In this document: positions 4,903 to 59,310 of the stretch, piece after piece | Layout: each line of letters begins with the position of its first letter | Position numbering within the stretch: the stretch's first letter is position 1 | Source: an uncultured Nitrospiraceae bacterium | Lineage (GTDB): Bacteria; Nitrospirota; Thermodesulfovibrionia; Thermodesulfovibrionales; Dissulfurispiraceae | Length of the DNA: 64,000 nt | Direction of reading: 5' to 3' | Assembly: GCA_963705105.1 (NCBI GenBank) | Contig: CAVPIW010000009.1 | Coordinates: 96,001-160,000, forward strand | Position numbers and translations under genes: made by a program | The notes under the pieces: generated by a model | What the model was told of the DNA's origin: nothing | The model's input: the letters and a program-made list of their open reading frames with translations, nothing else | Database searches by the model: none

Positions 4903-5070
4903 GGGAAGGCAGATATGGTTCAACGCCTTTCCAATGCGATGATAAGACATCTCAGGGTGTTCAGCGCCTGTTGCCTGACGGGCTTGTGGTATCAACAGAC
5001 ACGGCAAAGGGTGGTCTGGGGATGAACAAGGTATCTTAGCGGAAAGGCCTTTCACCACATCAGCCTTCCC
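4903..5070. repeat. Palindromic/MITE-like element family C, copy 1
   Basis: 168-bp core with ends GGGAAGGC(A/T)GAT(A/G)TGGT; inverted copy at 31134-31301. Confidence 0.8.
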
Positions 5071-5113
5071 GCCCGCATGTTCTCGGCCTTGTTCTAAACT
5101 GACGACTGCCGGA

Positions 5114-5854
5114 TTATGACTCTTGTGGCGCGATTGCTTGCTTCTTTTTCGTTTTTCTGCTGCCGCTCATGATGTTCAATGTTTCGACAAAAGCGGAGAA
5201 AGCCATGGCGAAGTAGATGTAGCCCTTGGGAAAGTGGAATTCCAGCCCCTCCGCGACGAGCGTCACTCCCACCATGAGGAGGAAGCTCAGGGCGAGCATC
5301 TTCAGGGACGGATGGCGGAGGATGAAGGCGCCGATCGTCCTGGACGAAAAGAGCATGAGGAGCATGGCGATGATGATTGCCGTGATCATGACCCCCAGTC
5401 GCTGCGCCATGCCGATGGCGGTGATGACCGAGTCGAGGGAAAAGACGATGTCGAAGAGGACGATCTGCGTGATCACCGCGGCGAAGGACGTCTTCAGCGT
5501 GCGGTGCACCTCCTTGCCCTCCGGCTCGAAGGCGTTGTGGATCTCGTGCGTGCCCTTATACAGCAGGAAAAGTCCTCCACCGACAAGGATGAGGTCACGG
5601 ACGGAGAAGTCTCTGCCGATCAGTGAAAAGAGCGGCGCCGTCAGACCGGCGAGCCAGGCGATACTCAGCAGCAGCAGCAGCCGTGTGATGAGCGCGAGAC
5701 TCAAACCCGTCATGCGGGCGGTCTGCTGCCTCTCTGCGGGCAGTTTGTTCGCAAGAATCGAAATGACGACGATATTGTCGATGCCGAGAATGATCTCCAG
5801 CGCCGTCAGCGTAATCAGGCTCGCCCATAACTGGGAATCGAAAATCCAATCCAT
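5114..5854 (-). CDS. TerC-family membrane protein (probable Mn2+ homeostasis)
   Basis: LEIILGIDN and DIVFSLDSVITAIG TerC motifs. Confidence 0.92.
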   Translation of the reverse strand: MDWIFDSQLWASLITLTALEIILGIDNIVVISILANKLPAERQQTARMTGLSLALITRLLLLLSIAWLAGLTAPLFSLIGRDFSVRDLILVGGGLFLLYKGTHEIHNAFEPEGKEVHRTLKTSFAAVITQIVLFDIVFSLDSVITAIGMAQRLGVMITAIIIAMLLMLFSSRTIGAFILRHPSLKMLALSFLLMVGVTLVAEGLEFHFPKGYIYFAMAFSAFVETLNIMSGSRKTKKKQAIAPQES

Positions 5855-5882
5855 ATATGCCTCCTAATAGTTCATCCTGCAC

Positions 5883-5935
5883 AAAAAAAGCGAGAGTCGT
5901 CAGCATGACACCGGGTCATGCTGAAGCTCTCGCTT
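5883..5935 (-). terminator. Intrinsic terminator forming the riboswitch expression platform
   Basis: Minus strand AAGCGAGAG...CTCTCGCTT hairpin followed by a T run; overlaps the aptamer 3' strand. Confidence 0.8.
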
Positions 5936-6018
5936 ACTGGTCTGATTTCAGCCAATGACAAGGCCAGGTGTTCCCACCGGCATGTTGACCCTGCCTGAAT
6001 AGCTACTCCGCTTCAGCA
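5919..6018 (-). ncRNA. yybP-ykoY (Mn2+) riboswitch
   Basis: Minus strand TGCTGAAGCGGAGTAGC...GTCAACATG...GGCC...AGCGAGAGCTTCAGCA with closing P1 helix, directly upstream of a TerC gene. Confidence 0.85.
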
Positions 6019-6188
6019 GAGAAATTTTACCAGTCTTTCCCCGTTCAAATCAAGCCGGGACGTGAACCGCCACGGACGACACACCTTGCAGTTTCATGGA
6101 AAAGGCAGGGATGAAACGGACCTGCTCTGGGAGAGATATTTCACTTCCCGGCAAGTTCTTTCAGGGCAGATTTGTACTGTGAGATAAA

Positions 6189-6212
6189 ATCCGGTGCACG
6201 CCGTTGTTCGCT
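6189..6212 (-). mobile_element. Truncated attC site (R'' and L'' half only) of the TA cassette
   Basis: AGCGAAC-AACGG-CGTGCACC-GGAT directly after the toxin stop; parallels the intact attC; no L'/R' half found. Confidence 0.7.
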
Positions 6213-6470
6213 TCAACGATATACTTCCTTTCTATGGCCAACCTTCACGACCCATACCGTAAGCTCTCTGTCTTGAATGGAATAGACAATTCTATACCGA
6301 CCCTGACGAATACGGTATCTCTCTTTGCCTGTCAGTTTTTCGTGCCCCTGTGGTCTGGGGTCTTCGGCCAGAGCCTCTATGCGACGAAGGATCTTTCGGA
6401 GGTCTTTCTTCGGTATGGTGCCAAAATCTTTTTCAACCGACTCTTTGAAATAGACCCTATATTCGGCCAT
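6213..6470 (-). CDS. relE: RelE/ParE-family toxin
   Basis: 85 aa; YRIRQGRYRIVY and VVKVGHRKEVY motifs; overlaps antitoxin. Confidence 0.92.
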   Translation of the reverse strand: MAEYRVYFKESVEKDFGTIPKKDLRKILRRIEALAEDPRPQGHEKLTGKERYRIRQGRYRIVYSIQDRELTVWVVKVGHRKEVYR

Positions 6471-6690
6471 CTTTCTTTAGTTTCTTAACCATTTCGTCAT
6501 AACTGATCAACGGTTCTTTAGCCCTTTCTTCAAATGCCGTAATGTCCTCAGCGTCTTCCGCCAGAGCTTCCCTAACGGCGTCGTTGACAAGTTCGGATAC
6601 TGACCGGGATGTCTCTACTGCTTTTAGTCTCAAAGCCTTATGTAGATCCGGGTCCAAGTATACTGTAGCCCTTCTGGCTGCTGTTGCCAT
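6457..6690 (-). CDS. Ribbon-helix-helix (CopG-like) antitoxin
   Basis: RATVYLD...SVSELVNDAVREAL RHH pattern, acidic C-terminus, upstream of toxin. Confidence 0.88.
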   Translation of the reverse strand: MATAARRATVYLDPDLHKALRLKAVETSRSVSELVNDAVREALAEDAEDITAFEERAKEPLISYDEMVKKLKKDGRI

Positions 6691-6716
6691 GATATCACCT
6701 CCACTGTGGCTAAGTA

Positions 6717-6745
6717 ACTATAGCATTAAGACGCTATGACGTCAA
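6717..6745 (-). promoter_or_regulatory. Sigma-70 promoter inside the TA cassette
   Basis: TTGACG-17 nt-TATAGT with overlapping ATAGC/GCTAT inverted repeat (possible operator). Confidence 0.7.
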
Positions 6746-6763
6746 AGAACGGTCTTTCTTGAA

Positions 6764-6824
6764 AGCGAACGCCACGCATCACCGGTGCCGCGGAGCGGCA
6801 TCCACGTGCATGCGCTTGTTCGGC
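6764..6824 (-). mobile_element. Integron attC site (61 bp)
   Basis: R'' GCCGAAC, 5-nt spacer, L'' CATGCAC with extra base, inner hairpin TGCCGC-TCC-GCGGCA, L' GGTGATG, 6-nt spacer, R' GTTCGCT. Confidence 0.88.
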
Positions 6825-6851
6825 ACCTCCTGCTCGATGAGGTGTCCCGTC

Positions 6852-7328
6852 TCAACCTTTCTCCATTGCTTTTGCCTTCGCTCCGGCAGTCCAGATCCGA
6901 TAACGCACCTCAACGCCTTCGGGTACATAGACCACGATGGGCAAACGGCTGTTGTATCGGATGAGATAGGGATCACCGCCAAGCGTGATAAACCGGGCCA
7001 CTTTCGGCGCGTTTGGATCGATTGCCATAAGCGTGCCTGCCATCGGCCCAAGCTTGCTGACAATGTAACGTGGGAATCCCCACCCCTGGATGGTTTCTTC
7101 CTCGATTGTCCCGCCGAAGAAGTAATTGTTCTTCTCGTCAACGTGAACTGTCTTTCCGACGATCAGCTCCACTTTGAAAGCGGATTCGTCATCTTGTGTC
7201 GGAAGTTGCAAGACATATCGAACCTTGCCCTGATCCGCTGGGGGAAACGCCTTCATGTTGTCCTTCGCGTAGGCAGGCAACATTGAAGAGAGTAGCAAGA
7301 CTGCAATCAATGAACACATCTTTTTCAT
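6852..7328 (-). CDS. eco: Ecotin-family serine protease inhibitor (gene cassette)
   Basis: Signal peptide; KVELIVGK, GWGF, GTLMA, RYNSRLPIVVYVPEGVEVRYRIW ecotin motifs. Confidence 0.92.
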   Translation of the reverse strand: MKKMCSLIAVLLLSSMLPAYAKDNMKAFPPADQGKVRYVLQLPTQDDESAFKVELIVGKTVHVDEKNNYFFGGTIEEETIQGWGFPRYIVSKLGPMAGTLMAIDPNAPKVARFITLGGDPYLIRYNSRLPIVVYVPEGVEVRYRIWTAGAKAKAMEKG

Positions 7329-7341
7329 GTTATCTCCTCAT

Positions 7342-7375
7342 GCCGAACATTACTCTTTAGTTGCCGACTGCTTTT
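7342..7375 (-). mobile_element. attI-like primary recombination site
   Basis: Minus strand GCAGTCGGCAACTAAAGAGTAAT-GTTCGGC; GTTCGGC is the exact complement of the ecotin attC R''; site is not palindromic. Confidence 0.6.
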
Positions 7376-7381
7376 TTTCAC

Positions 7382-7410
7382 ATCATATCGAAAATGCGAG
7401 GGCGAGTCAA
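7382..7410 (-). promoter_or_regulatory. Sigma-70 promoter reading into the cassette array (Pc-like)
   Basis: TTGACT-17 nt-TATGAT. Confidence 0.75.
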
Positions 7411-7542
7411 GCAAAAGACAGGTTTTCGGGCATTCTGGGGACAGAGCAGCCGTCTTATATGACCGAAAAGGTATATTATACGGTCATAACAACGAGAATT
7501 TATTATTCCAGGATTGTCTGTCTCAAGCGACGATCATGTGCC

Positions 7543-7962
7543 TTATTCCTCTCCGGGATAATGGAAAGACCTGAGGCTCTTCTTTTCGGAAATGTGCGCT
7601 TTGTCGGCGAGCACCTTTTCCTTTGCCCTCTTGGAGCGTTTCCGTTTCTGGCGCCGGATCTTCTCGATCCGCTGCCGCTCGGCGCTCTCCTCTCCTTTCC
7701 GGATTTCCTCAATCTTGTTCGTCAGGAGCACCCGTGCCCGGTAACGGTTCAGGCCCTGCGAGCGCTCTTCCTGGCACTTGACCTCGAGGCCCGTCGGCCG
7801 GTGCTTGAGGTAGACGCAGGTCGAGACCTTGTTGACGTTCTGTCCTCCCCTGCCCCCGGAACGGACAAAACTCTCCTCGATGTCCTCCTCACGGATGTCC
7901 AGGGACTCCATCCTCTCCCTGAGGGACTTTTCCTTCGCCTCTGAAACCGGGAATATGCTCAT
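7543..7962 (-). CDS. arfB: Peptide chain release factor-like ribosome rescue protein (ArfB/RF-1 domain)
   Basis: RSGGRGGQNVNKVST GGQ motif, CQEERSQGLNR, basic C-terminal tail. Confidence 0.85.
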   Translation of the reverse strand: MSIFPVSEAKEKSLRERMESLDIREEDIEESFVRSGGRGGQNVNKVSTCVYLKHRPTGLEVKCQEERSQGLNRYRARVLLTNKIEEIRKGEESAERQRIEKIRRQKRKRSKRAKEKVLADKAHISEKKSLRSFHYPGEE

Positions 7963-8097
7963 GTATGTGCTCCCTCGTATCTCTATGTATGAATAGGCGG
8001 GAATGACGTTGATGTCGTCATTCCTGCGCACCCCGCAGTGCCATAACAGGGTCTGCAGCGCACTTCAATGCCTGACGGCACTGTTCCGAATCGATGA

Positions 8098-8442
8098 CTA
8101 AAGAAAGATGAACGCATAGGGTTGAAATACGTTCGGACAATCCTGAGACAAGATTGTAAGGGCCTTGGCGATTCTTGCCGGTTGATTGCCCGGGTAAGAT
8201 CGGGGGATTATGATGATGCCATGGTGAGGGCGGCCTTCATGAAAATAGTACTCCGTGAGCATAAGGAAATCGTTTCGGTTGCGGGTCATGACACAGCGCC
8301 CCTGACGGGCAGCCTCATCAAGCACCTCCTGATCTTCCGCGCCGGACAGGCCGATCTCTCTGACATGAACAGCGTCGACACCTTCGGCTCTCAGGATAAC
8401 GGCAATTTCATCACTTAAATCCTCATCGACAAGGACCTTCAC
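8098..8442 (-). CDS. DUF5615-family PIN-like toxin
   Basis: xKVLVDEDL...D.EVL...TRNRNDF PIN-like pattern; coupled to DUF433 gene. Confidence 0.85.
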   Translation of the reverse strand: MKVLVDEDLSDEIAVILRAEGVDAVHVREIGLSGAEDQEVLDEAARQGRCVMTRNRNDFLMLTEYYFHEGRPHHGIIIIPRSYPGNQPARIAKALTILSQDCPNVFQPYAFIFL

Positions 8443-8852
8443 CGGCCTTTGCCTCCCGGCAGAGAGAACCGGGTCCCAACTGTTTCCGGCGTAATGGCCT
8501 CATTGCTTTGTATGAGCTCGTCGATTTCTTCCGGGTAGGACCGGTAGTAGTTGAGCGCTGCAATGAGTTGTCTTTCCGTAAGGTGGGGCAGGGCCTTCCT
8601 GAGCGCCTCCGCATCCTTGCCGACGATGTGATATTCGTAGATGACTTCCCAGACCTCGACGCCCGTACCGGCGATACGGGCACGCCGTCCCGAAACACCC
8701 TCCGAAAAAATGACGCCCGGACAACGACGCATTTTCAGGGCCTCTTCGAGCAGTTCGTTGGCGATCGCATTGGCAGTCTTGTTTTTCCTGATGCTCTCGA
8801 TTTCCCGAAGTATCGGTTCTTTGATGCGGAAACTGCGTTGGATTGTCGACAT
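8439..8852 (-). CDS. DUF433-domain antitoxin
   Basis: GRRARIAGTGVEVWEVI...LTERQLIAALNYY DUF433 motif. Confidence 0.85.
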   Translation of the reverse strand: MSTIQRSFRIKEPILREIESIRKNKTANAIANELLEEALKMRRCPGVIFSEGVSGRRARIAGTGVEVWEVIYEYHIVGKDAEALRKALPHLTERQLIAALNYYRSYPEEIDELIQSNEAITPETVGTRFSLPGGKGR

Positions 8853-8957
8853 GGCGAAACCTCTTGTCACTTTATGTATTACATTATATCACAAGCTGGG
8901 CTGAAAGAGGTTCCGGCAACTGAGTCTTAAGCTTTCAAATCTCCCGTCACCTTGAGG

Positions 8958-9359
8958 TCAGGGAGCCCTCCCGAGACGGTAGAACACATACGGTCCGATG
9001 AGCGTCCATAGCGGGATGAGCACCCAGACGCGGCCGACGAAAATGTTGTAGTCGTAAAGCACTGTGCTCCAGGGATTGCCCGCAATGAAACGGACCATGA
9101 CAATCTCGAATGCCAGCGTCATAACGAGCCACATGAACCCGATCTTCCAGGCCTCCCCGGACGACCGGATGGGCCAAAGCGACGCCAGCAGCCTGAAATA
9201 GAAAGCGAATAGGATCAGGAGGATAACGGTCGAGATCTGATGAGCCGGAAGGTAGCCCACGTATGGCTTGTACAGCATGTCCCGCAGCCCCCCGTTGAGC
9301 ACCGCCAGGACCATCATGCCGAACCAGCCCAGGAAATACCTGCGCATCACCTGTTTCAT
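8958..9359 (-). CDS. Hypothetical membrane protein (about 4 TM helices)
   Basis: Hydrophobic ORF closely following the radical SAM gene; start uncertain. Confidence 0.75.
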   Translation of the reverse strand: MKQVMRRYFLGWFGMMVLAVLNGGLRDMLYKPYVGYLPAHQISTVILLILFAFYFRLLASLWPIRSSGEAWKIGFMWLVMTLAFEIVMVRFIAGNPWSTVLYDYNIFVGRVWVLIPLWTLIGPYVFYRLGRAP

Positions 9360-59098: not shown

Positions 59099-59310
59099 CC
59101 TTGCAGTTGCATAGAAAGGCGTGGCGAAGCGCCTCAAAGCCTTGCTGAAGGCGACGATACGCCTCGTCAGGTTTGTGTTTCAGGACTCCACTCTTTGTGT
59201 CATCGACCATAGACGTATAGGCCGTTTTTCGTTTTGATACAGGTGTCGCCGCAGCAAGGTTTTCGGCGCATACGCCCTGCCTTTCCCGGAAGTGTATTGC
59301 AACGATAAGG
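59099..59310. mobile_element. MITE-like element family A, copy 2 (inverted)
   Basis: 212 bp, CCTT...AAGG ends, TAAT duplicated on both flanks (59095-59098, 59311-59314). Confidence 0.82.

Follow-up and report, generated by a model that had tools for sequence, protein, structure and literature searches.

CALINs and SALINs consist of attC-bounded cassettes without a functional intI nearby, in genomes that encode an IntI elsewhere, and exchange with complete integrons has been proposed for them (PMC4889954; 10.1101/2022.09.11.507474). Mobilization in trans out of CALINs has already been put forward as well (PMC9668308; PMC12444791), and genomes with several integrons, or with CALINs behind pseudogenised integrases, are known (PMC9229058; PMC13108822). 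It is stated in PMC4889954 that attI is unknown for most integrons and was hence not searched for, and that most CALINs and SALINs show no intI pseudogene in standard searches. The class 2 integrons of Tn7 are described with a dead integrase, a working Pc inside the attI region and changes in their arrays that are attributed to a non-cognate integrase in trans (PMC8876359; PMC3321497), the variant arrays being ascribed to IntI1 acting at attI2 (PMC3321497). IntI1 was further described to insert at, and to excise from, genomic GWT sites (10.1101/2022.09.11.507474). In the chromosomal integrons of Xanthomonas, intI was truncated or deleted with retention of the array, mostly at one ancestral locus (ilvD) that was frozen after the loss of intI (PMC12444791).

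The present locus lies in a stretch of 64,000 nt (the window, by which this whole stretch is meant) of the genome of an uncultured Nitrospiraceae bacterium (G000), the assembly of which has 19 contigs and is 99.4% complete. It contains the front of an integron, i.e. Pc and attI, which is called a head hereafter, of a lineage designated type B. Like CALINs and SALINs it has attC-bounded cassettes, no functional intI nearby and an IntI encoded elsewhere, and with its one whole attC it would count as a SALIN. Unlike them it keeps Pc, attI and a 5' stump of intI, it belongs to a family of 29 copies, and the evidence points to uptake at an orphan attI, beyond donation. An N-terminal stump of 22 codons would escape the C-terminal pseudogene search that found a pseudogene for 15 of 279 CALINs (PMC4889954). 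With class 2 integrons the locus shares the dead integrase, the Pc in the attI region (predicted here) and, presumably, array changes by a non-cognate integrase, but theirs is one internal stop in a full-length intI2 on a transposon (PMC8876359; PMC3321497), whereas here little of intI is left, the many heads lie on the chromosome, and transposon ends common to them were not observed. It differs from the frozen single locus of Xanthomonas in that dozens of loci are involved, with signs of later traffic. Cassettes with an R''/L''/L'/R' attC and an attI beside the 5' end of intI are shared with complete integrons; the intact intI is absent.

In the literature covered (main texts, mostly of papers outside subscription) no published report was found of dozens of orphan Pc-attI heads or of a dated uptake at one. 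The distinctive part is a dated cassette pair that links an orphan attI to a non-cognate integron. This natural pair bears on uptake at orphan attI sites and on the use of foreign attI by integrases. With regard to the origin of CALINs and SALINs, and to whether these are still alive, the locus shows that a CALIN-like site can hide a Pc-attI head of which the stump is too short for the standard pseudogene searches, and that one genome can hold over twenty such hidden heads.

Anatomy of the locus

The locus was compared with two intact integrons, L112 in genome G004 (contig C63, same family as G000) and L126 on a metagenome contig. The first-pass annotation had placed on the minus strand a promoter, a site ending in G/TTCGGC, an ecotin gene, a 61-bp attC, a TA pair with its own promoter and half an attC, and all of these were found again at the same places:

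7543..7962, minus strand: RF-1-domain (GGQ) ArfB-like gene of the host flank, its stop codon abutting the intI stump (PF00472, E 6e-25)
7478..7543, plus strand: dead 5' stump of a type-B integron integrase gene (alignment to the intact intI of L126 and L112)
7411..7477, plus strand: intergenic region from Pc to the start of intI, which presumably holds PintI (55/69 identical to its L126 counterpart)
7382..7410, minus strand: predicted cassette promoter Pc, TTGACT-17-TATGAT (same hexamers in the intact integrons L112 and L126)
7346..7381, minus strand: attI (type B), crossover G7348/T7347 (homology among heads ends at G/TT; same site beside intact intI)
6770..7347, minus strand: cassette 1, ecotin (CDS 7328-6852, 158 aa) and attC (PF03974, E 1e-44; near-identical copy on contig C12)
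6764..6824, minus strand: attC of the ecotin cassette, 61 nt, crossover G6770 (covariance model; bottom-strand fold)
6191..6769, minus strand: cassette 2, TA pair and left arm of an attC (6212-6191) (Pfam; complementarity of R'' and start)
6745-6717, minus strand: predicted own promoter of cassette 2, TTGACG-17-TATAGT
6690-6457, minus strand: RHH antitoxin of cassette 2
6470-6213, minus strand: ParE/RelE-type toxin of cassette 2
6109..6191, minus strand: what is left of a third cassette, namely the 3' end of a MazE/AbrB antitoxin gene and the first codons of a Fic/Doc toxin gene (84.5% over 84 nt to C19:22719-22636)
6083..6110, minus strand: 28-nt piece like the end of an abundant ~200-bp repeat (MITE-like, our label; many short genome matches)
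5114..6038, minus strand: host flank, conserved leader (6038-5884) and terC-family gene (leader 77% to C10:128812-128654)

The predicted Pc at 7410-7382 matches the consensus at 10 of 12 positions. A promoter scan of 5800-8200 gave 4 promoter-like sites versus 1.9 +/- 1.2 in shuffles, which is weak on its own. Early scans for attC by grammar were noisy (80 genome matches, mostly in coding DNA) and were replaced by a covariance model trained on 20 other attC sites, the window's own being excluded. By this model the attC proposed for the ecotin cassette (6824-6764) was recognized with 31.1 bits (E 1.8e-5), and the next match in the 64-kb window had an E of 0.69; by plain folding alone its z was only -1.8. 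Each cassette start had been said to be complementary to its own R'', and this proved exact in both cassettes (GTTCGGC/GCCGAAC and GTTCGCT/AGCGAAC). When AAC/GTT is taken as fixed, the chance of both complementarities is about (1/256)^2.

Apart from the whole attC, the locus has one attC left arm, at the end of cassette 2, and the genes on C19 that match the third-cassette remnant belong to PF04014 and PF02661. Judging from the sequence, a single deletion truncated the third cassette and took away the right arm of the attC of cassette 2, fusing the remnant to half an attC. One copy of the ~200-bp repeat gave 164 genome matches of at least 120 nt, but none at the 6083..6110 piece itself. Copies of this MITE-like repeat are also present at 2398-2598 and 59105-59307 of the window, and others lie inside the intI promoter region or the intI start of several heads.

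The leader of the terC-family gene (6038-5884) is non-coding, has a terminator-like hairpin and could be an unlisted metal-sensing RNA. A comparison of 5000-9000 with Rfam gave no match at E<=1, either to attC or for this leader, and the idea that the leader is a yybP-ykoY riboswitch was left unsupported. On the other flank, the name arfB that had been given to the upstream gene could not be maintained: the RF-1 domain and the GGQ motif are present, and the NCBIfam model for ArfB (NF006718) gave 49.4 bits versus a cut-off of 100. Just upstream of this gene, at 8098-8870 (minus strand), a DUF433 / DUF5615 (PIN-like) gene pair is probably a further TA module; no attC match above chance was found for it.

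The intI stump and the family of type-B heads

The place where intI would normally sit had been described as about 130 bp without the gene. A gap of 133 bp is indeed present, but it contains a dead intI stump: 22 codons aligned against about 26 in the intact gene, with a change of ATG to ATA, two small deletions and the truncation. This dead start codon and these indels show that the platform lost its intI. No match to TIGR02249 above the cut-off for an integrase call (265 bits) was obtained on the window's contig. The 170 bp upstream of the crossover recur across G000, the homology stopping at G/TT, and several of these copies have upstream of them, on the opposite strand, coding sequence for an integron integrase N-terminus. 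With the N-terminus of the type-B integrase as query, an intact gene of 426 aa was found in 1 of 300 genomes of the class (G004), and a second intact gene is present on the L126 contig; the TIGR02249 scores of the two proteins are 427 (L112) and 435 bits (L126). In both records the same promoter and G/TT site stand back to back with the intact intI. This indicates that the site is a true attI and the promoter its Pc. Over its last 25 nt, the type-B attI is identical to that of L126 at 20 positions. The locus is almost certainly a decayed integron head. The G004 genome is titled Chloroflexota yet was placed in the family of the window's genome, which could mean a mislabelled bin or a mis-binned contig.

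Similar sites elsewhere, for which the first-pass annotation had proposed a search, were found in number: 29 heads in G000, besides two intact integrases of another type (type A). The heads were located with a profile built from ten non-G000 heads only, which gave 32 matches at 29 loci (23 at E<=1e-5) and 0 matches at E<=1 in the reversed G000 genome that served as control. The counts of heads differ by analysis, 29 being profile loci, 30 having been screened for duplicates and 42 for truncation points. Their stumps range from 0 to 163 codons and have ragged ends. For at least 10 of the 29 heads a same-strand match of the attC model was present within 5 kb downstream, versus 1.25% of random positions; 3 of these 10 had supplied training sites of the model. 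In this genome-wide run 150 of 1403 candidates were scored, the window's attC not being among the matches listed, and 4 model matches from a further run were added. Among the candidates scored, no such match was found for 19/29 heads, and GTT is absent from the crossover window in 12/29; for these reasons most heads look like fossils.

Eleven G000 heads were compared with L126. The -35 was conserved at 100% (11/11 heads), the -10 at 91% and attI at 82%, against 61% for the Pc spacer and 68% for intI codons 1-15, a contrast that is biased because the heads were found through Pc and attI. The first ORFs of 22 heads were scanned and gave 4 matches to TA families (BrnT, Phd, an addiction antitoxin and HicB) and 1 inserted transposase, and 8 had no Pfam match. 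At G000:C12:306968 onward (about 8469-8570 of L059) the first cassette of a head has an attC-like hairpin that ends in G/CT, not G/TT; its R'' exactly complements the cassette start.

Twelve of 14 metagenome pattern matches are heads, the doubtful L117 included; L121 and L124, which are AT-rich and have no intI homology, were left out. One of the twelve has an intact intI, 8 have a stump and 3 have none, so that the orphan state (11/12 without intact intI) is usual in the type-B lineage. In the tree of heads, which is weakly resolved (3/23 branches starred), 5 metagenome heads from one sample group together with L123 (100/98) and ten G000 heads group weakly (82/92). This suggests that the heads expanded within lineages. 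Some head pairs are local duplications. Beyond such pairwise duplications no common flank was found among 30 heads, of which the outer ends are ragged, and by eye no shared sequence was seen after the two intact intI genes. Signs of a transposon-borne integron, namely terminal repeats in common or transposition genes beside the heads, were not found.

Recombination of attC with attG within intI, by which heads would mobilize themselves, was rejected as a general route, as the 42 truncation points are ragged and have no consistent AAC/GTT junction. One head (L115) has AAC at its truncation junction, and an apparent cluster of truncations near codon 40 may be chance. When the head was compared by BLAST with 60 relatives, 3 weak matches resulted, one of them the intact G004 integron, and the exact head pattern occurs in 1 record of the GTDB collection. 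For an empty-site comparison, no congener of G000 was available among the genomes searched; around 29 matches to the RF-1 gene (28 from relatives, G000's own being excluded), neither a head nor terC nor ecotin was present in the nearest ~1.5 kb.

Type-A integrases and the ecotin cassette pair

Only two TIGR02249 matches above the cut-off are present in G000, both of type A (on C12 and C5). These integrases are 49% identical to type B and have intact catalytic motifs. Their attI differs from the type-B attI and shares only its last few bases, which would weigh against type A as the agent. The first cassette behind both type-A integrases is a cassette of ~251 bp without clear ORF, which starts with G/ATGGGGC and has GCCCCATC as R'', so that a GAT/ATC core replaces GTT/AAC. 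It has five copies: C5:226339-226089, C5:225220-224970, C15:1138-888, C15:3122-2871 and, shortened, C12:170126 onward. C15 repeats 7 kb of the C5 integron array (C5:217414-224777) at 98.5-99.5% and may be a duplicated array or a strain variant.

A second copy of the ecotin cassette was found in the type-A array at G000:C12:157149-156568, with 99.1% identity over 583 nt and the same two crossovers. This is not a case of the same genes without such sites, since the cassette carries its attC there too. Outside attC the two copies have 0 substitutions in 524 nt (108.7 synonymous sites) and differ by one 1-nt deletion, which frameshifts the C12 copy and leaves that of the window intact. The window copy is the first behind its Pc, the C12 copy far from its promoter. 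All 4 substitutions between the copies are in the 61-nt attC (compared with C12:156626-156566), with a chance of about 1e-4, and the ecotin copy in metagenome run X2 seems to have yet another attC right arm. Such attC-confined changes may reflect mutation specific to the hairpin, or an exchange of arms. Ahead of the C12 copy stand a broken R'' and TAATTG, the six bases with which the type-A attI of C12 ends, and nine attC matches lie between the copy and that attI. We take this junction to resemble the attI scar of Tn1331. The C12 junction and the nine intervening matches suggest that the type-A IntI handled the ecotin cassette, integrated the C12 copy and has been very active since. The direction of copying is not fixed, as a search of 400 genomes gave no outgroup for the attC of the ecotin cassette.

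Contigs of the metagenome runs X1 (possibly the source sample), X2 and X4 were used for the comparison of strains. An X2 contig spans the same stump/RF-1 junction as the window, with 7 of 13 substitutions and both indels in the stump. The shared truncation, the drifted stump and the near-identical ecotin copies indicate that intI was gone before the X2 strain split off and that the ecotin copies parted long after. From the window's ecotin, related pieces of other runs diverge by about 1.4-3.5% or more. The sequence to which the TA cassette is joined on its upstream side in X2 and X4 is not ecotin, the junction in X4 falling precisely on crossover 6770, and among the pieces listed none of X2-X4 joins ecotin to the window's attI. 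As the contigs concerned are short metagenome pieces by which the locus is not bridged, and as ecotin and TA genes are widespread (clusters of 129, 13 and 24 members), they may come from other arrays and serve as supporting evidence only. When 30 heads were screened for near-identical cassette pairs, the ecotin pair was the only one; one further cassette-precise pair is 85% identical. It is probable, on these comparisons, that cassettes still moved at the window's head after the death of its intI. If they did, the head is likely serviced in trans.

Possible agents of the probable cassette traffic

Several explanations of the locus were weighed against servicing by type A. The head could have been loaded after the death of its intI by a cognate type-B integrase elsewhere, be it missing from the assembly, very recently lost or transient, in which case one intact type-B copy would serve all heads that share this attI. 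This would fit the strict attI specificity stated in PMC2095811, which counts against type A as agent. Intact type-B genes do exist in a genome of the same family and on a metagenome contig, and in one metagenome sample an intact copy (L126) occurs together with a stump (L116), the heads of the two being closely related. Two arrays, moreover, run off contig ends (C10 and C7), and an assembly in 19 contigs could miss a type-B intI. Neither an intact type-B gene nor a type-B 3' fragment was found in this 99.4% complete assembly, however, and the longest stumps have stops and changes at invariant residues and are hence not freshly broken. We regard loading by a cognate integrase as rather unlikely. 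Another explanation sees in the head a fossil site of expression that could at most donate cassettes: ecotin would have entered it under a live type-B intI, excision in trans would recently have brought a copy into the type-A array, and no cassette would have integrated at the head since. The intact ecotin copy here and the frameshifted one in the array agree with this, most heads look decayed, and excision of CALIN cassettes by integrases elsewhere has already been proposed (PMC4889954; PMC9668308; PMC12444791). But excision of a first cassette still requires recombination at the type-B attI, and strains with the same truncation appear, from unbridged contigs, to carry other cassettes before the TA pair and ecotin elsewhere. 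This explanation is unlikely.

A small CALIN without integron ancestry, formed by cassettes that landed at a chance GTT (attG) of the genome downstream of a host promoter, is hardly credible, and the same holds for misassembly. Insertion near promoters is documented (10.1101/2022.09.11.507474) and 95% of CALINs have no recognizable intI pseudogene (PMC4889954). Unlike an attG insertion at an unrelated genomic site, however, the window has a site and a promoter homologous to those of intact integrons, as well as an intI stump, so that this explanation was counted as refuted. As to misassembly, contigs of X1 run across both key junctions (from attI over the stump to the RF-1 gene, and from ecotin over attC to the TA pair) without a single difference, and an X2 contig crosses that of the stump independently.

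Given cassette traffic after the death of intI, type A is moderately favoured as its agent. The chances appear about even for the fuller claim that this decayed head, one of 29, still receives cassettes in trans, most probably via the two intact type-A integrases. If true, integrons would escape the limit of expressing only the cassettes near one promoter. In the mechanism that we propose, type-B integrons would have multiplied in an ancestor, partly by local duplication, after which erosion would have shortened intI from the 3' side, to ragged points. The promoter hexamers and attI would have been retained, presumably for their role in expressing the first cassette, which is often a TA pair. 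An ecotin circle would then have integrated at attI ahead of the TA cassette, probably recently and after intI had died here, with a resident type-A IntI as the likely agent and the foreign attI serving as a GTT secondary (attG-like) site. The outcome would be many small expression sites that are supplied from the cassette pool of long arrays.

More tentatively, and with the balance leaning against it, the genome may be seen as a distributed integron, in which two long cassette libraries with active integrases feed ~20 dispersed integrase-less Pc-attI sites. In that case several library genes would be expressed at full strength in parallel, and attachment-site specificity would be leaky enough in nature to keep dead heads as working landing pads. 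A second lineage also leaves stumps: at G000:C6:1015880-1016480 a decayed type-A head was observed in which a repeat is inserted.
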